A DNA stretch of 64,000 nucleotides from Nitrospirota bacterium (GTDB taxonomy: Bacteria > JACPQY01): contig JACPAV010000007.1 in assembly GCA_016180645.1 (NCBI GenBank), forward strand, positions 40,888 through 104,887. The letters are read 5' to 3'. The notes under the pieces are model-generated. The model saw only the letters and a program-made list of their open reading frames with translations. It searched no databases and was not told the origin of the DNA. Positions 33,400 to 49,341 of the stretch are shown piece after piece (position 1 is the first letter of the stretch; each line of letters starts with the position of its first letter). Both the position numbers and the translations under genes were made by a program.

Positions 33400-35673
33400 A
33401 AAGGGCCTGTCGAACCACGGGCCGATGCCTGCTTCATCTCTCTGGGACTACTTGCCGCTCTCCTTCTTTCCGCCTGCTACACGGACAAACCCCAGTACGT
33501 GGGTGGGTTCCGGGTGCAGCAATCGGGAAACCGTTTCACTCTATCCGGACCGGACGGCCGGAAACTCCTGGTGGATGCCTCGGCCCAAGTAGGCCAATTC
33601 ACCTTCCAACCCTGCTATCCGGACCCTCTCGGCCTGTCGTGCGGGAGTGGACAGGACATTCTCGGATGGGTGAGGATCGCTCGGGACTGGTCCGATTGGG
33701 CCGGTGAAGGAAGCGGCGGCGCAAGTTCTGATGACGGTACGGATCGCCGTCCCCGGAGCGGAGCGGAGCGGGGGGCCAAAGTCGATTTCATCGAGGAAGG
33801 GAAAGGCGTGATCCGAATCCACATCGAGAGCGCGGACGGGCGGGACAATGGAGGATTTCTCTCGTTCGACTGCGACTCCCGCGATGCCTTTCTGGGCTTG
33901 GGCGAACGGTTCGACGGCGTCAACCAACGCGGGCGGATCGTTCCGACCATCGTGGAAGAGGGTGGCGTCATCTACTCCGGAAACGACCGGCCCAAACCGC
34001 ATCTGGCCACGTACTATCCCGTGCCGTTCTATCTGAGCCCCCGCGGCTATGGGCTTTGGGTGGACGTCTCCGAGCCGACGTACTTCGATCTCTGCTCTTC
34101 CGATCCCAAACGCGTCTCCATCGAGGTTCTAAAACAACCTTTCGACGTGTGGATCTTTTCGGACAAAGACCCTCTGAAGATCATTTCCCTCTTCACCGAG
34201 CGCACGGGACGCCCAAAACTCTCGCCGCCGTGGGCCTTCGCGCCGTGGAACGATTCCGTGGCGTGCAGTTTCATCTCCTCCGAGACCAACTACGGCGAAA
34301 CCTGCGATATCGCCAAGGAGCCAGGCCTCGGTGAACGAAAAGTCCGCGCGTTGGCAAAAGAGCTCAAGGAGAAAGAGGTCCCCACGTCCGTCATCTTCTC
34401 CGAAGATTGGATCGGCGCCGAGCCGGCAAGCCCCTTCGGCTACACGATTGTCGCCGACGCCACGATCGATCGCGGGCTCTACCCGAACATCGAGTCGCTG
34501 GCCCAAGATCTCCACGCGCAGGGGATACGGTTCCTAGTGTACTACTTCCCCTACCTGATCGAAGAATTGGACGAGAACGGCGAACCCCGCAAGGGCAGCG
34601 ACTACGCCGAGGCACTCTCGAAGGGATACGCCCTCAAGGATGCCGCTGGGAAGCCCTACAATTTTCTCATGATCACGCGCCGTGTCGCTCAGGTCGATTT
34701 CACGAATCCGGCCGCACGGAAGTGGTACAAGGGCATCCTGCGCCGCGCGATCGACCTCGGCGCGGACGGCTGGATGGCCGATTTCGGTGAATACACGCCG
34801 CTGGACGCGGTGGCGTACGACGGCACCAGCGGCCTCGCCCTCCGAAACGCGTTCCCCGTCCAGTGGCACAAGATCAATCGCGAAGTGTGGGACGAAGCGA
34901 GACCCAACGGCGACTACGTCTTCTTCACCCGCTCCGGATACACCGGCACCCAGCAGTACTCGCCCGTTTCCTGGCCGGGAGACCAGAACACCGATTGGAG
35001 CCTGCTGGACGGCCTTCCCTCCATTCTTCCCTCCGCGCTCGCCCTGGGCATTTCGGGTCAACCCATTTTTGGGCACGACATCGCGGGCTACACCACCATT
35101 CCCGGCGCGAAGAACACCGACAAGGAATTGTTCATGCGGTGGACGGAACTGGGCGCCTTCTCGCCCATCATGAAAACCCACCACGGAAACGAGGCCGGCC
35201 AGAATTGGACGTTCGATCGGGACGACGAAACGCTGGCCCATTTCAAGCTCCATGCCGAGGTCCACACCGCGCTCTTCCCGTATCTCTACGGCCTGGCCCA
35301 GGAGGCATCGGACACGGGCCATCCCCTCATGCGTCATCTCTACCTCCAATACCCGGAGGATGCCGAAGCGTCCTCCATCGAAGATGAGTATCTCCTGGGC
35401 CCGGATCTCCTGGTCGCGCCGGTAGTGACACCAAGTACGTCATCACGCACAGTCTACTTTCCGAAAGGGCGATGGATCGATTTCTGGAGACTCTACTTTG
35501 GCAATCCGGAGCCGGAGGCGTACGGGGGTCCCGGCCGCCATGATGTTCGCGCATCGCGTATCCCGGTCTTCGTGCGCGCCGGGGCCTCGATCCCTGTGCT
35601 CGACCCGGTGCCCCTGACTCTCGACGGCATAGATCTGGACAATCTCAGCTTGAGAACCATCGAGGCCCAGTAG
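33400..35673 (+). CDS. glycoside hydrolase family 31 (alpha-glucosidase-like) lipoprotein; start unresolved (no canonical start before the signal peptide)
   Basis: …ISLGLLAALLLSACYTD… lipobox; GH31 catalytic-region motifs …WMADFGEY… and …GHDIAGY…. Confidence 0.75.
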   Translation, partial: KGPVEPRADACFISLGLLAALLLSACYTDKPQYVGGFRVQQSGNRFTLSGPDGRKLLVDASAQVGQFTFQPCYPDPLGLSCGSGQDILGWVRIARDWSDWAGEGSGGASSDDGTDRRPRSGAERGAKVDFIEEGKGVIRIHIESADGRDNGGFLSFDCDSRDAFLGLGERFDGVNQRGRIVPTIVEEGGVIYSGNDRPKPHLATYYPVPFYLSPRGYGLWVDVSEPTYFDLCSSDPKRVSIEVLKQPFDVWIFSDKDPLKIISLFTERTGRPKLSPPWAFAPWNDSVACSFISSETNYGETCDIAKEPGLGERKVRALAKELKEKEVPTSVIFSEDWIGAEPASPFGYTIVADATIDRGLYPNIESLAQDLHAQGIRFLVYYFPYLIEELDENGEPRKGSDYAEALSKGYALKDAAGKPYNFLMITRRVAQVDFTNPAARKWYKGILRRAIDLGADGWMADFGEYTPLDAVAYDGTSGLALRNAFPVQWHKINREVWDEARPNGDYVFFTRSGYTGTQQYSPVSWPGDQNTDWSLLDGLPSILPSALALGISGQPIFGHDIAGYTTIPGAKNTDKELFMRWTELGAFSPIMKTHHGNEAGQNWTFDRDDETLAHFKLHAEVHTALFPYLYGLAQEASDTGHPLMRHLYLQYPEDAEASSIEDEYLLGPDLLVAPVVTPSTSSRTVYFPKGRWIDFWRLYFGNPEPEAYGGPGRHDVRASRIPVFVRAGASIPVLDPVPLTLDGIDLDNLSLRTIEAQ

Positions 35674-37809: not shown

Positions 37810-38760
37810 ATGGGCAAGGACTACTACAAGACCCTGGGCGTCTCGCACAACGCGTCGACGGACGATCTGAAGAAAGCCTACAAGCGGCTGGCGAAGAAGT
37901 ATCACCCCGACTTGAATCCGGGCGATAGATCGGCCGAATCGAAGTTCAAGGACATCAGTGAGGCGTACGCCGTTCTGGGGAACGCGGAGAAACGCCGCCA
38001 GTACGATCACGTCGGCCCGTCCGGCTTTCATTTCGATCCGCGCGAGTACCGGACAACGGGGGGCGGCGTTCAATTCGATCTCGGCGGGTTCGATCTCGGC
38101 GACTTGTTCGACGGTATCTTCGGCGGGCGCGGCGGGCGGGGTCGCGGCGGCAGCGCGGATCCCCGTGACGGATCCTTCCGCCGTCCGCGGAGCGGAGCGG
38201 AGTGGGGCGGGTTTGGTCAGCAACAGATGCCGCACGGCGGCGATCTGGAATATACGCTGGAGCTTGAATTCGATCAGGCCATCGAAGGCTACACCGCGGG
38301 CATCAACGTGAACGGTGAGATCATCAAGGTCAAGATCCCTGCAGGAGTGGACAACGGGTCCAGGGTCCGGGTTCGTCAAAAGGGAGCCGTCAGCCCGTTC
38401 GGCGGGCCTCGGGGCGATCTCTATATCCGGGTGCTGGTCCGCCCTCACCCCCTGTTCGAGCGAAAAGGAAAAGATTTGCACGTGGAATTGCCCGTGACGT
38501 TTCCGGAGGCTGCCCTGGGCGCCACGGTGGAGGTGCCTTCATTGCACGACCGGACGAAAATCAAGATTCCGCCCGGCACGTCGAGCGGCAAGGTCTTCCG
38601 GATCTCCGGGAAGGGCGTGCGGGTGACCAATGGTGACGGTCCGGGCGACCTGTATGTCAAAGTGAAAATCGTGGTTCCGAAGGATCTGAAAGGCCGGGCG
38701 AAAGACCTCGTGGAGCAGCTCGGAGAGGAGCTTTCCGAAAATCCCAGATCGAGTTTCTAA
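37810..38760 (+). CDS. DnaJ-class co-chaperone lacking the zinc-finger domain (CbpA-like)
   Basis: J-domain …YYKTLGVSHNASTDDLKKAYKRLAKKYHPDLNPGD…; G-rich linker; C-terminal substrate-binding domains; no CxxCxGxG repeats. Confidence 0.85.
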   Translation: MGKDYYKTLGVSHNASTDDLKKAYKRLAKKYHPDLNPGDRSAESKFKDISEAYAVLGNAEKRRQYDHVGPSGFHFDPREYRTTGGGVQFDLGGFDLGDLFDGIFGGRGGRGRGGSADPRDGSFRRPRSGAEWGGFGQQQMPHGGDLEYTLELEFDQAIEGYTAGINVNGEIIKVKIPAGVDNGSRVRVRQKGAVSPFGGPRGDLYIRVLVRPHPLFERKGKDLHVELPVTFPEAALGATVEVPSLHDRTKIKIPPGTSSGKVFRISGKGVRVTNGDGPGDLYVKVKIVVPKDLKGRAKDLVEQLGEELSENPRSSF

Positions 38761-39973: not shown

Positions 39974-41284
39974 TTGGAGGTGAAGATGCTGCGGCTTGGA
40001 GTCACTTCGCTGAGTGTCCTGCTTCTGTTCTCCTGCGATCAATCCAAACCGAAGCAGTCGTACCCCACTCCCATCGAGCACGTTATTTTCATCAGCAAGG
40101 AGAATCGGACGTTCGACACATATTTCGGGGCCTATTCGTCTCCCTCCGGTGATCACGTGGAAGGAACCACAAAAGGAAAGCTGGGATCCACCGTAATCGA
40201 CCTTCCGAGAGGGCAGGACGTCGGGCCCTACGTCATGCACGAGCACTCGAACGCCCTTCTTTCATGGAACGGCGGCGCGATGGATGGGTTCTACCTGACT
40301 CCCCGTTTGTACGGACCCCCCACCCAAGAGGAGAAATTGGAATCCTACGTGCAGTACCTGAGGGACGATATCCCGAACTATTGGGCGCTCGCCGACCGCT
40401 TCGCGCTGGCCGATCATTACTTTACGTCCGTCATGACCTCGACCTTCCCGAATCGGCTCCATTCCGTGGCCGCGCAGGCGGCCGGGATGTATCAACTGCC
40501 GATCTCCAAGCCGTGGAGTTGCCAAATCAAATACGCCGCCGCGCCGGTCTTTAAGGAAGACTGCTCCACAGACATGGTTGTCCCCTGTTTCGACATCCCG
40601 ACCATTTTCGACCTCGTGGAGGCGAAGGGGCTGACCTGGAAGATGTACATTTCGCCCAGGGATGGAGGCGGCAATTTCAATGCGCTCTACTCCATCCGCC
40701 GCTACTATGAAAAAGTTCAATCGGACCCCGCCTATGCCGACAAGTTCTTTCCACCTGTCAGCCAATTGGCGGAAGACGCGAGGCGGGACCGGCTGCCCAA
40801 CGTGGCCTTCGTGATCTACCCGATGGAACTCAGCGAGCACGCTCCGGAAGGACCGGTCTGTTGCGGCGAAGAGGCCACCACAAGAGACATCTGGGCCCTC
40901 ATGGAGAGCCCGGCGTGGAAACGGAGCCTCATCATCCTGACGTGGAACGACTACGGCGGCTACCACGACCACGTGCCGCCGCCCGAGCCGCACGCGTGCC
41001 CTTCGGGCGAGGGGCACTACGAGCCCGGCTTCAGAGTGCCCGCAATCTTTGTTTCCCCATACGTCAGGCGAGGGTCGGTCGTTTCAACGGTGCTTCAACA
41101 CGGATCGGTCCTGCGTGGAATCGAGGACATCTTCTCGCTCGGAATGACGCTCCACGACCTGGACCCGCGGGCCAACGATCACACGATGAATTCCATCGCC
41201 GAAGTTCTGAATTTCGCCTCCCCCGATTTCACCGTCCCCCCTCGCACCGCCCGCTCCTGCCCAAACGCCTGCCTCGCAGATTAG
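39974..41284 (+). CDS. phosphoesterase-family lipoprotein (phospholipase C / AcpA acid-phosphatase-like)
   Basis: Lipobox …VLLLFSCDQ…; …IEHVIFISKENRTFDTYFG… phosphoesterase family signature. Confidence 0.75.
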   Translation: MEVKMLRLGVTSLSVLLLFSCDQSKPKQSYPTPIEHVIFISKENRTFDTYFGAYSSPSGDHVEGTTKGKLGSTVIDLPRGQDVGPYVMHEHSNALLSWNGGAMDGFYLTPRLYGPPTQEEKLESYVQYLRDDIPNYWALADRFALADHYFTSVMTSTFPNRLHSVAAQAAGMYQLPISKPWSCQIKYAAAPVFKEDCSTDMVVPCFDIPTIFDLVEAKGLTWKMYISPRDGGGNFNALYSIRRYYEKVQSDPAYADKFFPPVSQLAEDARRDRLPNVAFVIYPMELSEHAPEGPVCCGEEATTRDIWALMESPAWKRSLIILTWNDYGGYHDHVPPPEPHACPSGEGHYEPGFRVPAIFVSPYVRRGSVVSTVLQHGSVLRGIEDIFSLGMTLHDLDPRANDHTMNSIAEVLNFASPDFTVPPRTARSCPNACLAD

Positions 41285-41511
41285 GGATTGCGAGAAAACA
41301 AAGTTCACATGTTGGGCCGGCATCCGGCCTTCCCAGCCGCCTGGGCGGAGCGGGCAGCCGCCCCCTACGAAGGATCTCCTATCTTGGTAGGGGAGCAGCT
41401 TTAGCTGCTCCCTTTTCTCTTGGGAGGACCCAAAGGTCCTCCCCTACGCGATCGGCCTTGGCCGCGCTCTTCGCGCGATTGAGCAGCTAGTTTCCTCGCA
41501 ATCCCCTAGCT
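41281..41511. mobile_element. MITE-like element bounded by 11/12-bp inverted repeats (agggattgcgag … ctcgcaatccc) containing a third, diverged nested-hairpin repeat (41345-41470)
   Basis: Terminal inverted repeats read directly. Inner hairpins gggagcagctttagctgctccc and gaggacccaaaggtcctc show compensatory changes relative to copies 1 and 2. Confidence 0.5.
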
Positions 41512-41920
41512 GCATTTGGCCACGCCCCGCCTGCGCCGGACGACCTACACCGATCCGCATTGACCCTTCCCGGCAGTGGGTGATAAAGTGGGGGCTGTGG
41601 GAAAGTCGCTTTCGGCCGGGCGTGATGCCGGCCGCACTCTCGGCCTTCCTGGCGGACAGGATGTCAGCGATGGTGGGGAGAGTGCGTTATCGAATCGATA
41701 TCTAAAGCACGCGGAGCAACTGCATGCGAACTTCTATGAAGATTTCTTGAAAGTCCGGGAGCTCCGGCTACAGGCCGAAGACCTCAAGACGCTCGTACTG
41801 AAACTCCGATCCCTTTTGAATCAGAACGGCGCCCGTTAGCTCCCTTCAACGAAAAACATCCGAACCGATAGGACCCTGAAATGTCGGCAACGACGCATCA
41901 GAGGCCAACGCGACGGAAGC

Positions 41921-42254
41921 CAATTGACACGGAATCAGCCACCGGTAGAATTCGACGCATGGCTCCCATGACGATTCATTTCGCGGCGCAAAGGCCGAAC
42001 CACTGTTCTACTCGCCGTCCCCGAAGCCTGGCGAAGGGGGTCGCCCCCGGAGCGAAGCGAATGGGGTCGTTTGTCAGGCATGGACACCGCAACGGGGGCA
42101 AAACGGGGAATCAAATCGAAAATATCGGCTGAGATCGCTGACATGATAGTAGGCATCCGGCCTGCCCGCGCCCTTGGCAGGCGGGCAAAACCGCCCGAAC
42201 ACAATCCCGATACAAGAATATCAGGGCAAAATGCCAAGCTAATCAATGGTTAGG
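41921..42254. repeat. direct repeat A (~334 bp): consensus sigma70 promoter TTGACA-16-TAGAAT at 41924..41951 followed by a long conserved leader; partner copy at 45572..45846
   Basis: Two long blocks nearly identical between copies; copy A carries a ~60-bp internal insertion. Ends ~8 nt before the ATG at 42262. Confidence 0.85.
41924..41951 (+). promoter_or_regulatory. consensus sigma70-type promoter (TTGACA, 16-nt spacer, TAGAAT)
   Basis: Both hexamers match consensus, 6/6 and 5/6. Confidence 0.6.
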
Positions 42255-42261
42255 TTGTTCA

Positions 42262-42774
42262 ATGACACCTAGGAAACGTCTTCGTCGAGTGGCAATTCTT
42301 TGCTGCCATTGCCTCCGCAATCTGGCGTTTTACAGGGCCGGTTGGAGAGGAAGGACGCCTATCTTTGGGGGGCAGTTCTGGAGAAGTGTGAACGGAAACT
42401 TCCTAGACGTTTGTGTGTTGGAGTGGTGCAAGCTGTTTGGAGATGAACGCGGGAAACACTATTGGAGGAAAGTCATTTCCCACCCAGACGCATTCTTCCA
42501 AGAGTTGTTAGGCGAAATCGGCGTAGCCGAGTCCAAACTCGACGAACACATCAAAGAAATGCGGACATACAGGGATAAATTTGTGGCTCATCTCGACGAT
42601 GAAGAGGTAATGCAGATTCCAACTCTCACAATCACATTGAAGAGTGTGTCATGCCTTTATGACTATCTGCTCGCCAATGAAGGTGAGCCGGAGTTTTTTT
42701 CTGACGCCATAAAATATGCATCAACCTTCTATAGACGATTTCTTGTAGAAGGCGAAAAGGCATACAAAGCATGA
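42262..42774 (+). CDS. hypothetical protein in lower-GC DNA with an Rx5H (RDKFVAH) HEPN-like motif
   Basis: Compositionally distinct from flanking DNA (visibly more A/T). Motif …TYRDKFVAHLDD…. Confidence 0.4.
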   Translation: MTPRKRLRRVAILCCHCLRNLAFYRAGWRGRTPIFGGQFWRSVNGNFLDVCVLEWCKLFGDERGKHYWRKVISHPDAFFQELLGEIGVAESKLDEHIKEMRTYRDKFVAHLDDEEVMQIPTLTITLKSVSCLYDYLLANEGEPEFFSDAIKYASTFYRRFLVEGEKAYKA

Positions 42775-42911
42775 AAGAGCAACATGACCACGCGTTCAAC
42801 TCGACCTCGGCGACGCTGCGCACCCCCTCGGCTGGCTAGCTCGAAGGTGAGGCGCCCGAGGAGGGTGACCGTGACACGGGAATACCCAGCGCTCATGAAC
42901 GACTGGATCTC

Positions 42912-43870
42912 ATGAAGATTCGACGGATCAACGCTGACAAGCCGCACCTCTGGAAGGCCGACATCGCGGCCTCCGTTGACCAATTCAACCAGTGGTTCAT
43001 GCGCTTCGCGCCCGAGGCGTTCCGATCCACGCGGGTGGAGACGACCGAGCACGTCAAAGCGGCGCTTGTGGCAACCCAGAACCTGCGCGCCCTGAACGCT
43101 GCCACGTTGAAGGCCAACCCGGGCGCACTCCCGACTCTCCGCATGTGCACCGCCCCGCCGCTCGCCGTGGACCGCCTGATCGGCTTGGCCGACGCGAGCA
43201 AGAATCTCGTCGGCCGGATGGAGAAGGGTAAGCTGCCGACCAAGATTCAGGCTGCGGACCTTGACGCGGAGTTGACCAAGCTCTGCCGCATTCTGTCGCG
43301 GCTCTTGGACCGGGACATATTTCCCTGGCTCGACAACCGGACGGCCCCGACCGACCATGAGCGCGACCGGGCCTCAACGATCGTTGCCGATCGGCTGTGC
43401 AGCGCGGTGGCGAACCCGATCGTCCGCAACGCTCAGGAGCAACGACAACTCGCATTGATCGGCGACCATCTCGACGGCCGGGGCTATCGCAAGCAAGCCC
43501 ACCCGCCGGGCAAGCCGCTCACGCAGATGGAACCCGGCACGTATGCCTTCCGCATGAATCTGGCCGTCGGAAAGGCTCTCAAAGTCAACATCCCGGTCGA
43601 CGTCGTGATCTAGCCCAAGAGTCTCCGCAAAGACCGGCTGCCAATTCTGATCGAAGCCAAATCCGCGGGTGATTTCACGAACACCAACAAGCGCCGCAAG
43701 GAGGAGGCAACCAAGATCCACCAGTTGCAGGCAGCCTACGGCGCGACCGTGGTGTTCGTGCTCTTCCTCTGTGGATACTTTGGCAGCGACTATCTGGGCT
43801 ACGAAGCTGCCGAGGGGATCGACTGGGTGTGGGAGCACCGAATCGAGGACCTCGCGAAGCTGGGGCTGTA
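42912..43870 (+). pseudogene. type II restriction endonuclease (PD-(D/E)xK) interrupted by an in-frame TAG at 43611..43613
   Basis: The frame continues through the TAG for 85 more codons to a TAA at 43868, which abuts the MTase ATG. The amber falls between …NIPVDVVI (PD-like) and …[11 protein letters not shown]… (ExK). Confidence 0.55.
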
Positions 43871-43875
43871 ACACC

Positions 43876-45472
43876 AATGATCACGCCACGCGAGAACCCG
43901 ATTGAAGCTCGACGACAGGCCATTCAGGCGGCGCTCGACGCAAGGAAGTCGGCCGCCGAGAGGAACCGCCTCGGTCAATTCGCGACTCCCAACGCCCTCG
44001 CGATCGAGATTGCCCGCTACGTTCGGTCCATTGCGGGCCGCCGTCTCCACGCGGTCCATTTCGCCGACCCCTCCGTCGGCACGGGCAGCTTCTACAGCGC
44101 CGTGCTCGCCGTTTTCGGCTCCGAGCAAATCGAGAACGCCGTCGGCGTCGAACTCGACCCCGGCTTCTGCGATGCCGCCCGCGACCTGTGGGCGGAAGCG
44201 GGCCTTGATGTGATGCAGGGCGACTTTACCCGCATTGTCGCAAGTGCCGGTTGCCCGGTCGCACCTAACCTGATCCTCGCCAACCCGCCCTACGTCCGGC
44301 ATCATCACTTGGAGCGCAAGGACAAGGAACGCCTGCAAGCCCTCACGCACCGGATGGCGGGTGTCGAGGTCAATGGCCTCGCGGGTCTATACGTTTACTT
44401 CCTTCTTCTCGCCACGGCGTGGATGGAGGAAGGCGGCTATGCCGCGTGGCTTATCCCCTCCGAGTTCATGGACGTCAACTACGGCGCGGTGGTCAAGCGC
44501 TTCCTGACGGACCGCGTGGAGCTTCTCCGCGTTCATCGTTTTGACGCCGAAGATGTGCAGTTCGGCGACGCCTTGGTCTCATCCGTCGTCTTGGTGTTCC
44601 ACAAGGCGCCACCGCCACGCGATCATGCCGTGGAGTTTACCTTCGGTGGCACGATCGCTGAGCCGCATGCCCGCGAATCCGTCACGCTGGACCGGCTGCG
44701 CGACTCACGCAAGTGGACCGCGTACCCCGAGCACGATCGGAATGACCGTCGCTCGTCCACGAACGGCGAAGGGCCAACGCTTGGTGACTTGTTTCGAATC
44801 CAGCGCGGTATCGCCACCGGTAACAACAAGTTCTTCGTCCTTGACCGGTCCGACGCGGCCAAACGCGGCCTACCGAAGAAGTTTCTACGCCCGATCCTCC
44901 CCAGCCCGCGCCACCTCAAGGCGACGATCATCGATGCCGGCGAAGATGGCTACCCGCTGATTGACCCACAGTTCTGCGTTGTCGACTGCGAGCTGCCGGA
45001 GCATGTTGTTGCGGCCAAGTACCCGGCCCTTTGGGCATACCTGCAAACCGCCGAGGCGCTGGGGATCAAAGATGGCTATCTCGTCGGTAAGCGTTCGCCG
45101 TGGTACAGGCAGGAGCAACGGTTGCCTGCACCCTTCCTTTGCACCTACATGGGTCGGGGCGCCGAAGAAAAGCAACCATTTCGCTTCATCTGGAACCGCT
45201 CGGCTGCCATCGGGACAAACCTCTACCTCATGCTGTATCCACAGCGCACCCTCGCTGCGAAACTGCGGGCACAACCAGAGTGCGGCGCAGCGATCCACGA
45301 TCTCTTGCGATGTGTCACCGGGCACGAGCTGCGCGGAGAGGGACGTGTCTACGGCGGTGGGCTCAACAAGATAGAGCCGAGTGAGTTGGGCCGCATTTCG
45401 GCGGCACCGTTCATCGCGCGTTGGCCAGAGCTGAAGTCCGCTGTGCAGCGCCAGGTAGGGCTCTTCGGGTGA
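43876..45472 (+). CDS. N6-adenine DNA methyltransferase (gamma-class, NPPY; TaqI/Eco57I-like with C-terminal target-recognition domain)
   Basis: Motif I …[11 protein letters not shown]…; motif IV …[14 protein letters not shown]…. Confidence 0.85.
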
Positions 45473-45571
45473 CTCGCAGCAGAATCGGAGTGGGCACCCC
45501 CGGGGTGCCTAGCAACCGGTTGCGCGGATGGTCCGCTGCGCGGCCCGCCGGGTAGAGGAACCTCAGAGAGT

Positions 45572-45846
45572 CAATTGACACGGAATCAGCCTCCGGTAGA
45601 ATCCGACGCATGGCTCCCATGACGATTCATTTCGTCGTCCCCGGAGCGAAGCGAATGGGGCGCTTGTCAGGCATGGACACCGCAACGGGGGCAATACGGG
45701 AATCAAATCGAAAATATCGGTCGAGATCGCTGACATGATAATAGGCATCCGGCCTGCCCGCGCCCTTGGCAGGCGGGCAAAACTGCCCGAAAGCAGTCCC
45801 GATATCGCCTTGTCAGGGCAAAATGGCAAGTTAATCAATGGTTAGG
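45572..45846. repeat. direct repeat B (~275 bp) with consensus sigma70 promoter at 45575..45602
   Basis: Matches 41921..42254 apart from the insertion in copy A. Confidence 0.85.
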
Positions 45847-45862
45847 GGGCGAGACATACTCT

Positions 45863-46234
45863 ATGGATTACGTTGCCTTCCATAACAAGCAAGGCCGGCC
45901 TGTCGCATGGATTGGCGATAACCAGGACTACCCGTCAATCTTTCTGTTCAACGGTAAGCCTGTTGCGTGGATAGCCGATGACTGCGTCTATAGCTATTCC
46001 GGAAAGTACTTGGGTTGGCTCCAGGACGGATGGATACGGGACAGAAACGGTCACGCCGTGTTCTACACCGGCGAGGCTTCTGACGGTCCTGCCAAACCTG
46101 CTAGACAGGCTCGACCTGCTCGCGGGGCTCGTGGTGCGCGACCCGCGCGTGGCGCGCCCGAGGCTCGACCAGCAAGACCTGCGCGCTCAACATCTTGGTC
46201 ACCACTCAGCGATGAGTCGTTCTTTGAGCAATAG
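45863..46234 (+). CDS. hypothetical protein with three internal G(K/R)PVAWI…Y…GK(Y)LGW repeats and a PAR-rich tail
   Basis: Repeats visible in MDYVAFHNKQGRPVAWIGDNQDYPSIFLFNGKPVAWIADDCVYSYSGKYLGWLQDGWIRD…. Driven by the repeat-B promoter. Confidence 0.4.
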   Translation: MDYVAFHNKQGRPVAWIGDNQDYPSIFLFNGKPVAWIADDCVYSYSGKYLGWLQDGWIRDRNGHAVFYTGEASDGPAKPARQARPARGARGARPARGAPEARPARPARSTSWSPLSDESFFEQ

Positions 46235-46322
46235 CGGCGCGCCCCCTAACAATTCATTCAAGCCGACGCCGCTTCGTGCCGCGGCTGATGCCGGACCTTT
46301 CCCCTGAAAGACGCAAAGCGCC

Positions 46323-46946
46323 ATGTCGTTCTATAAGGCCAGCGACACGAGCAATTTCGTAATCTCCTTTACACGTGACCCGAAAGGAGATTTCAGCGCG
46401 TTCGCGAAGGGCTACACACGCGCGGCAAATCGTTTGGCGGCGGCACTGCTCGGGGGTCCGAGGTTCCCTGACTATGAAGCGTACCCCGTTGTTTTCTTGT
46501 ATAGGCACGCGCTCGAACTGTCGCTAAAGCACATTATCTACGGTGGAGCCGAACTCGCAGCGTACCGGTGCATGGATGAAATAAACGAACAGTTGCAGAT
46601 CAACCATAACCTTGCTGAGCTTTCGCGGGTAGCCGGCAAGGTGCTTTCGCTCCTCTTTCCGAATGACGAGATGCTCAACCGTGTCAATGCAACTGTGGCA
46701 GCGATTTGCGCCGACTGGTCCAAGATAGACCCCGGCTCCTTTGCGTACCGATATCCCATAGTCACGAAGGGCCTACCCACTACAGAACGAAATCAAACTG
46801 TGAGCCTGCGCGCGCTCTCAACCCATATGGCAGCTGTCCTGGAAGATCTCGACACTGTTCAGTTTGGTCTTGATATGGAAACTTACAAGGCGCAGGAACT
46901 GTACGGAATTCTTGAGCAGTTCGTTCCATCCGGCCGTGCACATTGA
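46323..46946 (+). CDS. hypothetical protein (first gene of a three-gene candidate defence module)
   Basis: 207-aa ORF in lower-GC DNA, same strand and tight spacing with the next two ORFs. Confidence 0.4.
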   Translation: MSFYKASDTSNFVISFTRDPKGDFSAFAKGYTRAANRLAAALLGGPRFPDYEAYPVVFLYRHALELSLKHIIYGGAELAAYRCMDEINEQLQINHNLAELSRVAGKVLSLLFPNDEMLNRVNATVAAICADWSKIDPGSFAYRYPIVTKGLPTTERNQTVSLRALSTHMAAVLEDLDTVQFGLDMETYKAQELYGILEQFVPSGRAH

Positions 46947-47062
46947 CAGCTTGTAGGCCAACAACGCACTTCAGCCGACGTCGCGCTCGCTGCGCTCGCG
47001 CACCGCGGCTGAGCGCGGGCATTGGGCGGACATGAACAACACCAACTGGGATTGAGGCGGCT

Positions 47063-47623
47063 GTGATCCAACTCTACCAAGCCGGCGGCGCGGGCGACTT
47101 CGCCATCCTCCAAGATGCCTGGACTCATGAACAGTGTCGACTTCTCTTCGAGAACGCGGGGCGTCTTCTTAATGAACGCGTGCACTCGCGAGCCGCCGAG
47201 CTCCTACGAGCCGTACCGTTTCGAGTCGCTGATGCAACGAACCATTTCAATGATGAGTTCTCGCTACTGCACGCTGTCGTACCGCTTGCGGAATATGAGC
47301 AGCTTCGCCGTGGGCAGGACGACCCGGTTAATCGGCAGGCGGTACGACAGATCGCCGCCGTATTGTCCGAACTCGGAACGCCGATCCGGTTCATAGCAAT
47401 CGAACTAGCCTTGGAAGCGCCAGTGCATCCGGCCACGCGGGCCGGTGGCGGTCTGAAGCAATCGGAGGTCAACAAGCTCGTATCGAGGTACATCGGCGTC
47501 TCGGGGGGCTACCTGGGTGATTTCTCGTATCGAAGCCACCATGAGTTCTACATCGAGCTGGATCTCGATATTGACCCCTACAACTACGATGGGACCACCC
47601 GCGAACGATTCACCAGGTTCTGA
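47063..47623 (+). CDS. hypothetical protein (second gene of the module)
   Basis: 186-aa ORF; ends 15 nt before the next ORF. Confidence 0.4.
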   Translation: MIQLYQAGGAGDFAILQDAWTHEQCRLLFENAGRLLNERVHSRAAELLRAVPFRVADATNHFNDEFSLLHAVVPLAEYEQLRRGQDDPVNRQAVRQIAAVLSELGTPIRFIAIELALEAPVHPATRAGGGLKQSEVNKLVSRYIGVSGGYLGDFSYRSHHEFYIELDLDIDPYNYDGTTRERFTRF

Positions 47624-47637
47624 GCGAGAGCTCGCCC

Positions 47638-48207
47638 GTGGTACAGGCCAAGATCCTCGAAGGCGTCTTGGCTCGCTTCCCAGTTAGCAGCTCCGAATTT
47701 CGTACATCGGACAGGGCTGCGGAGATTCGACGCTGGATCGCGCGTCTCCGCTCTGGCCCCGAGGTCGAACAGCCGACCCTGCGGATCACCAGCGAGGTGG
47801 TGGAACGCGCTTTGTTGGATGCCCAACAGCTCGTTCGCGCCACCGGAGCTACTAGTGGGGTGGATAGGCTCCACACCGCGCTTCACGGCTATCTCCGCGT
47901 AGTCTGCGGTGACGCGAATATCAAGGTCGACGGTGATGCGTCGCTGACCGACCTCTTCAAGCAGCTACGGGAGAGACATCCAGCCTTTCGCGATCTTGGC
48001 CCCCGGAGCGGCGACATCCTTCGAGTTCTCAGGGCGCTGGGGAGCATTCTTGACACACTGAATCCCTTACGAAACAAGGCCAGCCTCGCGCACCCAAATC
48101 CAGTGCTCCTTCCCGGGCCCGAGGCGATGCTGGCCATCAACGCGGCCCTCTCAATCCTGCACTACGTTGATGAAAAGGTGCACCGTAATGCAACTGGAAG
48201 CAGCTAG
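47638..48207 (+). CDS. Abi_C/HEPN-like protein (RNKxxxxH motif), candidate abortive-infection effector
   Basis: …LDTLNPLRNKASLAHPNPV… fits the Rx4-6H HEPN motif with the R-N dipeptide typical of the Abi C-terminal family. Confidence 0.45.
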   Translation: MVQAKILEGVLARFPVSSSEFRTSDRAAEIRRWIARLRSGPEVEQPTLRITSEVVERALLDAQQLVRATGATSGVDRLHTALHGYLRVVCGDANIKVDGDASLTDLFKQLRERHPAFRDLGPRSGDILRVLRALGSILDTLNPLRNKASLAHPNPVLLPGPEAMLAINAALSILHYVDEKVHRNATGSS

Positions 48208-48369
48208 CTCTTGGTGCCACGGTCTTGGTGCCTGGCATGACTTATTGACTTATTTGAACGCGTGAGACCGTCCCTCGTGCTGGTGGGCAGATTAAAGCCA
48301 AGCATCAATGCAGTCTTGACCATGTAGTCCGGCTACGGCCGGAGTTGACCTGGTTTCGGGGACGCTGCT

Positions 48370-49341
48370 CTACACCATGTGGCAGGCGGCCCAGTGGCTC
48401 GGGCGGACCTCGCGCCAGGCGGGCATCTCGCGGGAACATATCTCCTTCTTGATCGGACAACGCGGTTCAAAGGGGCAGCCCTTCGGTAGGTTGTAGGGAC
48501 TGGGCACGTCGCCCTTGATCGGCTCCGCGCCGTCGTGAAGACTCAGCGTCAGCCCCGGAACGGAATTGAGAAGCGCCTGCGTGTAGGGATGCTGGGGATT
48601 GTTGTAGAGCTCCATTGAGGGCGCCAGCTCGATCATGAAACCGAGATACATCACGGCCACGCGATGGCTGACGTACGTGACCACGCGCAAATCGTGTGAG
48701 ATGAAGAGGTACGAAAGTTTCAGCTTCTCTTGGAGCTCGATGAACAGGTTGATGATCTGGGCTTGAATGGAAAGATCGAGTGCCGAGACCGGTTCGTCCG
48801 CGATGACGAGCCGGGGCGACACCGAGAGCGCCCTCGCGATGCACACGCGCTGCCGTTGACCGCCGCTCATCTCGTGCGGGTAGGCCCTGAGCAGGGCCTC
48901 CGAGAGGCCCGCCATTCGCATGAGCTCGACCGTCCGCTCCCGGACCTCTTTCCCCTTGGCGAGATGGTGAACCTTTATTCCTTCCGAAATGGTCCCCTCA
49001 ACATTGATACGGGGGTTGAGCGATGCGAAGGGATCCTGGAAGATGACCTGCACGCTCCGGCGGTAGGCCTTGAGGTCATGGGCCGACATGTGGATGCTCA
49101 CCGGCTTGCCGTCGAATCGAATGGTTCCGCCATCGTGGGCGAGTAGAAGAAGAACGGTGCGGGCGAGGGTTGTCTTCCCGCAACCGCTTTCGCCGACGAG
49201 TCCGAGTGTCTCGCCGGGGAAGATTTCAAAGGTGACTCCGTTCAAGGCAAAAACCTTGCGCTTGGAGACGCTAAAGAACCCCTTCCTGGACTCGTACCCC
49301 TTGCGGAGTTCATCAATTTTCAGGAGGGCGGAATCACTCAT
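48370..49341 (-). CDS. oligopeptide/dipeptide ABC transporter ATP-binding protein (OppF-like)
   Basis: Walker A …GESGCGKTT…; signature …LSGGQRQRV…; Walker B …LVIADEP…; C-terminal oligopeptide-ABC extension. Confidence 0.85.
   Translation of the reverse strand: MSDSALLKIDELRKGYESRKGFFSVSKRKVFALNGVTFEIFPGETLGLVGESGCGKTTLARTVLLLLAHDGGTIRFDGKPVSIHMSAHDLKAYRRSVQVIFQDPFASLNPRINVEGTISEGIKVHHLAKGKEVRERTVELMRMAGLSEALLRAYPHEMSGGQRQRVCIARALSVSPRLVIADEPVSALDLSIQAQIINLFIELQEKLKLSYLFISHDLRVVTYVSHRVAVMYLGFMIELAPSMELYNNPQHPYTQALLNSVPGLTLSLHDGAEPIKGDVPSPYNLPKGCPFEPRCPIKKEICSREMPAWREVRPSHWAACHMV

Follow-up and report, generated by a model that had tools for sequence, protein, structure and literature searches.

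The segment from ~41.9 to 48.2 kb of the 64-kb stretch of DNA analysed here (the window), from a Nitrospirae metagenome-assembled genome, is best explained as a decayed, CALIN-like integron cassette array with phage-defence cargo, in which two direct repeats act as promoter-bearing modules on the recipient side of cassette junctions. We put the probability of this reading at roughly 55%. Within it, the modules may be attI-like sites, non-canonical promoter cassettes, or the product of insertion at a secondary site. Coordinates refer to the window throughout, and the repeats, the insert, the promoters, core sites, attC sites, genes and small ORFs described below all lie on the + strand.

The repeat is a non-coding promoter-leader module present in two direct copies: copy A at 41918..42254 (337 nt), which ends at an integron core site, and copy B at 45569..45846 (278 nt). 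A first-pass annotation of this DNA had described two direct copies of a ~300-bp element, and the BLAST comparison bears this out, with ~92% identity overall (95% in the first 66 nt, 90% in the last 215). The longest identical runs common to both copies reach 42 nt. Copy A alone contains a 57-nt insert (41984..42040), which had been called internally duplicated. The insert itself was confirmed, while the duplication holds only loosely: a 27-nt unit of the insert, 42014-42040, resembles the unit that adjoins it, 42040-42066, at 74% identity. Besides the insert, two 1-nt indels separate the copies in the alignment. Similarity stops at 42254 in copy A, 7 nt short of the ATG at 42262, and at 45846 in copy B, 16 nt short of the ATG at 45863, in agreement with the earlier observation that both copies end a few nucleotides before a start codon.

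Exactly two copies were found in the 64-kb window, both by searches allowing three mismatches, with shuffle controls, and by BLAST. A candidate third copy of the 3' end at 48294-48310 was dropped as not significant, since 9% of random chunks score equally, and similarities of the GAGCG-rich unit to 33731-33772 and 38162-38209 were set aside as simple-sequence resemblance in other settings. Three genes lie between the copies, for a HEPN-like protein, a XamI-type restriction endonuclease (with an in-frame stop) and a methyltransferase, so the repeats do flank a restriction-modification (R-M) islet, as annotated. The sole other record of the locus is a Logan contig (SRR12113431; L001/L012, 3472 nt), which starts inside copy A and stops inside copy B, the pattern expected of an assembly break at a repeat.

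Each copy begins with a sigma70-type promoter sequence, TTGACA-16-TAGAAT, at 41924..41951 in copy A and 45575..45602 in copy B. The description of these sequences as near-perfect was accurate: both match 11 of the 12 positions of the sigma70 consensus, which may not be the consensus of the Nitrospirae host. No other site within 41000-48500 reaches 11/12. The predicted promoters face the cassettes and lie ~300 nt (A) and ~245 nt (B) upstream of the core. The transcription start predicted 7-8 nt past TAGAAT (41959 and 45610) coincides with the A of an ATG, and a transcript from there could be a leaderless mRNA that encodes a short ORF (57 codons in A, 42 in B); because of an indel, the two frames part after ~25 common residues. 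On an unrelated contig carrying a homologue of the gene downstream of copy B (L016, positions 178-245), a non-attC stretch with a promoter-like TTGACA-17-TAGGAT lies 32 nt upstream of the core GTTGGGG, a layout which hints that the order of promoter, core and cassette may recur.

Both repeats end at G|TTAGG and a different cassette starts after each, which identifies the repeats as the upstream partners of two cassette junctions. At the first junction, the core site GTTAGGT (42249..42255) is where the identity between the repeats stops and homology to HEPN-like cassettes elsewhere begins. BLAST homology of the HEPN-like locus to five other loci (L006-L010) starts at 42249, the G of GTTAGGT. 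In L006 the equivalent position is occupied by the R' (GTTATGC) of an upstream attC of canonical form with CCCTAAC at its start, and in L005 it reads GTTATGT, each preceding the HEPN-like homologue of that locus. At the second junction, the core site GTTAGGG opens the cassette start GTTAGGGGGCG (45841..45851), just upstream of a gene for a 4-fold beta flower (Bflower) protein. This sequence is the exact inverse complement of CGCCCCCTAAC (46240-46250), found just past the Bflower stop, and an inverse pair of this sort is characteristic of cassettes in which R' pairs with R''. The Bflower gene of L016, 81% identical, has the same layout, with GTTGGGGG at its start and CCCCCAAC...GTTGGAT past its stop, and the bottom strand of its attC folds as a hairpin that pairs R' with R'' (z = -3.9).

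An R' core of the form GTTRRRY is therefore present at the 3' end of both copies, at the cassette boundary (42249 and 45841). That the repeats stop just before start codons is explained by this integron cassette context, which the first-pass annotation missed. GTTAGG is a short motif, and the case for its significance is made mainly by the homologous cassettes. Within the module we recognise an R box; the only possible L box is putative, a weak CTAAT...GTTAG inverted pair in copy A and a weaker one in copy B.

Two attC sites lie near each other past the second junction. Site 3 (46240..46290) is a left half only, made up of R'' (CCCTAAC) and L'', with the right half (L'-R') missing or decayed, and is 90-95% identical to presumed class 1 integron attC sites. 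The sequence past the Bflower stop, CCCCTAACAATTCATTCAAGCCGACGCCGCTTCG (46243 onward; match 46240/46245-46286/46290), has matches in at least 5000 plasmids; identities range from 80 to 99% and mostly lie within 80-95%. Thousands of the matched plasmids are from Enterobacterales and Pseudomonas; the site itself is in a Nitrospirae MAG. The plasmid records carry no attC annotation at the match, and we take the matching sequences to be class 1 integron attC sites from the close resemblance of the sequence to the aadA1 and aacA4 attC sites. The annotated entries among the listed plasmid matches (H1, H7 and H8) show the aminoglycoside-resistance cassette genes aac(3)-I and aacA4.

Site 4 (46954..47028; GGCCAAC...ATTGGGC) is complete, forms a bottom-strand hairpin and is homologous to an attC in L005, where the R' core reads GTTGGCC as against ATTGGGC at 47020-47026 of the window. 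To our knowledge, the GTT triplet of the attC core is invariant, and with its change to ATT site 4 is probably inactive. A profile of the attC left half found sites 3 and 4 and nothing else in the window, and both sites had been in the training set of the profile. No integron integrase gene (intI) was detected near the two sites: a tblastn search of the 64-kb window with an approximate IntI1 query had its best match at E = 0.87 and none near 41-48 kb. The genes that follow Bflower differ between arrays, the 207-aa gene in the window not being homologous to the one in L013, which argues that site 3 was once a real cassette boundary. The spacer after Bflower in L013 is also decayed.

The cargo of the array is typical of cassettes and of defence systems (HEPN/AbiU2-like, R-M, Bflower and Abi_C/AbiJ-like genes), matching a report of integron cassettes that encode phage defence (10.1101/2024.07.02.601719). 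Behind copy A, the HEPN/AbiU2-like cassette gene (42262..42774; 170 aa, 47% GC) has a start codon that is backed by N-terminal conservation among its homologues. It is followed by the XamI-type restriction endonuclease gene (42912..43613), which is truncated by an in-frame TGA at 43611-43613 that ends the protein at residue 233. The frame runs on to ~43840 and retains a 12-residue motif past the stop. Next is an intact gene for an Eco57I-like type II N6-adenine methyltransferase (43829..45472). With the endonuclease truncated and the methyltransferase intact, the R-M pair looks like a decaying system with an orphan methylase. Behind copy B, the Bflower cassette gene (PF21784; 45863..46234), whose L016 homologue is a canonical cassette, is followed by the 207-aa cassette gene (46323..46946) and by a last cassette with a 186-aa gene and a 189-aa Abi_C/AbiJ-like gene (47063..48207).

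The R-M pair has 63% GC, against 47% in the HEPN-like gene, and no functional attC separates the two; probably two cassettes, one with the HEPN-like gene and one with the R-M genes, were fused after attC decay. The spacer between them (42775-42911) contains a very weak attC-like remnant (GCGTTCAAC..., E = 27 in the left-half profile) and an inverted repeat, CCTCGGCG/CGCCCGAGG. A naive scan for AAC...GTT hairpins as attC candidates was dropped, as it does not discriminate in GC-rich coding DNA. Its top match was a perfect 11-bp inverted repeat, CACGAACACCA...TGGTGTTCGTG, at 43676-43760 (85 nt), in the C-terminal part of the broken endonuclease frame. Both recognisable attC sites are defective, and the array may be a fossil without present recombination. 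Its decay is read from the lost right half of site 3, the ATT of site 4, the want of a working attC between the HEPN-like and R-M genes, and the in-frame TGA of the endonuclease.

Searches for relatives of the module outside the window returned only chance matches. Exact-pattern scans with three conserved stretches gave three chance matches in unrelated DNA in the genome collection, none and then two chance matches in coding DNA in the metagenome collection, and none in viral contigs. BLAST of the repeat against plasmids gave a single 38-nt chance match and no similarity to known attI regions. The module was also absent upstream of the homologues of both cargo genes in other loci. With two copies only and no relatives found, nothing comparative supports a function of the module.

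On a rival reading, the repeats arose by ordinary segmental duplication of a native promoter with its 5' UTR and owe nothing to integron recombination, with GTTAGG either a coincidence or the trace of one attG-type insertion that was then duplicated. A 45-nt piece of the repeat is ~80% similar to 41319-41363, in an adjacent intergenic region that looks native, and this similarity hints that the module may consist of host DNA. Cassettes are also documented to insert at non-att GWT sites close to resident promoters (10.1101/2022.09.11.507474). Against this, two different cassettes start at the identical nucleotide of both copies, which would be unlikely for random sites or for the arbitrary end of a duplication, and the homologous cassettes fix that nucleotide independently. 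We therefore regard a native duplication as unlikely. The region of similarity at 41319-41363, which resembles the hairpin region of the repeats, lies within a 240-nt intergenic element (41270-41520, + strand) directly after a phosphoesterase stop codon. This element has a 24-nt closing inverted repeat and perfect internal hairpins, and its RNA fold reaches -125 kcal/mol (z = -5.8 versus shuffles). It occurs once in the window and matches nothing in Rfam; candidate identities are a MITE, a structured RNA and the boundary of the island.

The first-pass annotation had suggested, as one of two possibilities, that the leader is a cis-regulatory RNA with alternative hairpins, and one may think of a riboswitch, an attenuator or a free-standing sRNA with the defence genes downstream as its targets. 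GC-rich, mutually exclusive hairpins are indeed present in the sequence of this 240-300-nt leader, but the fold energies of the two copies are not clearly better than those of shuffles (z = -1.8 for B and -0.5 for A). Rfam gave no match at the gathering threshold in the whole window, and none even at E<=10 in 41800-46000. In a joint fold of A and B, all six stem substitutions retain pairing and the 57-nt insert lands in a loop; these six are one-sided G-C/G-U changes, and no compensatory pairs were observed. When substitutions were placed on the fold of each copy alone, only 2 of 20 broke pairs in copy A (P = 0.02), as against 13 of 20 in copy B. The + strand of the leader has no terminator-like site and no other expression platform was seen, the two cargoes are functionally unrelated, and homologues of both cargo genes occur elsewhere without the leader. 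Given the weak z-scores, the lack of compensatory pairs and the opposite outcomes for the two folds, a conserved RNA structure as modelled here is unproven, and we consider regulation by the leader RNA quite improbable.

A further alternative is that each repeat is a canonical integron component, either an unusually long attC or a whole gene-less cassette with its own attC. The repeat does occupy the place where an attC is expected, after the last gene of a cassette. It terminates in an L'-R'-like TTAATCAATG-GTTAGG, and weak R''-like AAC motifs occur near or just upstream of its left edge. An attC, however, requires an inverse core R'' (RYYYAAC), an imperfect inverted repeat of L'' and L', and a bottom strand that folds, and the repeats lack this combination. 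In both copies the 30-nt L'-R' end has no R''/L'' partner within 420 nt, the best duplex (-9.5 kcal/mol) not involving the core. The core end is likewise unpaired in the bottom-strand folds, for which z ranges from -0.3 to -1.1, while in the L016 attC used as a control (z = -3.9) R' and R'' are paired. The left-half profile scored nothing in or beside the repeats, and the left edge of the module has no recognisable core site. Giant attC sites with an R'' at the left edge or at CCATGAC (41969) were ruled out for want of pairing support. The usual length of an attC is ~57-141 nt, and the 278-337 nt of the repeats far exceed it. Nor does the module have an attC on both sides, as a gene-less cassette would: the flanks at 41840-41925 and 45473-45575 do not fold as attC, and the module has no attC of its own. 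It matches no defined integron component exactly, and an identity as a long attC or a complete gene-less cassette appears very unlikely.

The reading of the repeats as fragments of a duplicated protein-coding gene is essentially refuted: open frames of 81-103 codons do cross both copies on both strands, but two 1-nt indels put the long + frame out of register from one copy to the other, nearly all differences in the common 36-codon frame change the amino acid, Pfam gave no match at E<=1, and protein searches gave no match among 5.8 billion proteins and just two tandem-repeat artefacts among 1.84 billion representatives. The common frame is a small ORF of 36 codons at 42143..42253 in copy A and, in the same frame, at 45735..45845 in copy B. 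Its TAG stop occupies positions 3-5 of the core site, so that it ends 8 nt (A) and 17 nt (B) before the cassette ATGs. As this ORF shows no purifying selection and no clear ribosome-binding site, we mention it as a remark and not as evidence, and any function would be speculative.

The preferred reading, a promoter-bearing module on the recipient side of cassette junctions in a decayed array, was compared with known integron arrangements. The nearest in layout of parts is the class 1 platform with its Pc promoter and attI1 site. In both, a strong outward sigma70 promoter, a predicted one in the module, lies a few hundred nt upstream of GTTRRRY, the first cassette gene follows directly, and the site lacks an attC-type hairpin. 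The promoter of the module, facing the cassettes upstream of the crossover, is predicted from its consensus match. The small ORF of the module stops at the core-site TAG as ORF-11 does in attI1, where ORF-11 couples translation to cassettes without a ribosome-binding site (PMC8876359). The module differs in having no similarity to known attI sequences and no identifiable integrase-binding repeats. Two points stand against its membership in this class: no integrase gene was found adjoining the module or elsewhere in the 64-kb window with the approximate IntI1 query, and the module exists in two copies, of which the second lies within the array.

Gene-less cassettes that carry promoters have been described in the superintegrons of Vibrionaceae (Blanco et al. 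2024, PMC11014356). Like these, the module is a non-coding unit in an array, its sense-strand promoter could switch on downstream promoterless cassettes, and it can recur within an array. The Vibrionaceae cassettes are bounded by canonical attC sites, whereas the module has an R' end only and no attC fold; the host here is a Nitrospirae MAG, and no integrase was found in the window with the same query. A third comparison is with cassettes inserted at non-classical genomic sites (attG) and expressed via resident promoters (Loot et al., 10.1101/2022.09.11.507474) and with integrase-less arrays (CALIN/SALIN; Cury et al. 2016, PMC4889954). The window shares with these its chromosomal cassettes away from any detected integrase, joined at GTT to non-att sequence with a promoter nearby. 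Unlike in attG insertion, one recipient nucleotide is used in both copies of the module, which points to a preferred site rather than to a GWT taken at random. The module fits non-att genomic insertion only if the same nucleotide was used twice. Finally, fused cassettes with decayed attC sites have been reviewed (PMC8876359), and the HEPN-like gene and R-M pair resemble them in sharing one "cassette" with no functional attC between, as do sites 3 and 4 with their lost or mutated R'. This likeness concerns the surrounding array and not the repeat.

If the repeats are promoter-bearing modules of this kind, each would form the upstream, or recipient, side of a junction and end at the integrase crossover G|TTAGG. 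The promoter, judged by its consensus match only, would fire to give a transcript with a leader of 240-300 nt followed by the promoterless cassettes. Transcription from copy A would take in the HEPN-like gene, the broken XamI endonuclease gene and the methyltransferase gene, and that from copy B would cover Bflower with the genes that follow. In function, the module would be comparable to a Pc promoter joined to an attI-type site, or to the gene-less cassettes with promoters found in Vibrio superintegrons. The first-pass annotation had raised the idea of a portable promoter-leader cassette. This is sustained in part, as a near-consensus promoter leads into unrelated, apparently promoterless genes and the right edge of the module coincides with a core G|TTRRRY, although the integron context had gone unnoticed.

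The duplication of the module may have come about in several ways. In the simplest, a circle with the module and the HEPN/R-M block would have joined a resident module by site-specific or homologous recombination, or the copies would have arisen by unequal exchange. Either circle integration or unequal exchange would leave direct repeats around the 3.6-kb block. Alternatively, two insertions may have taken place at a preferred site. Excision of the block by homologous recombination, as proposed in the first-pass annotation, is plausible, since the repeats have stretches of up to 42 nt in common.

A bolder possibility is that the module is a self-contained "expression-and-capture" site of a kind not described before, combining a promoter, a structured leader and an integrase core, that can be copied within an array; a related idea is that the leader RNA regulates the defence cassettes. 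We hold both to be long shots. If expression and capture were indeed combined in the module, each captured cassette would arrive with, or land behind, its own strong promoter, with no need for a linked integrase. Cassettes at a distance from the platform promoter, or in arrays that lack an integrase, are commonly taken to be silent. A promoter module repeated at the position of the recombination site would show one way for such arrays to remain expressed in hosts other than Vibrio; the present array sits in a Nitrospirae genome and its cargo is of the defence type. Even after the decay of the integron, the 3.6-kb HEPN/R-M block between 92%-identical direct repeats could be lost or moved by homologous recombination.
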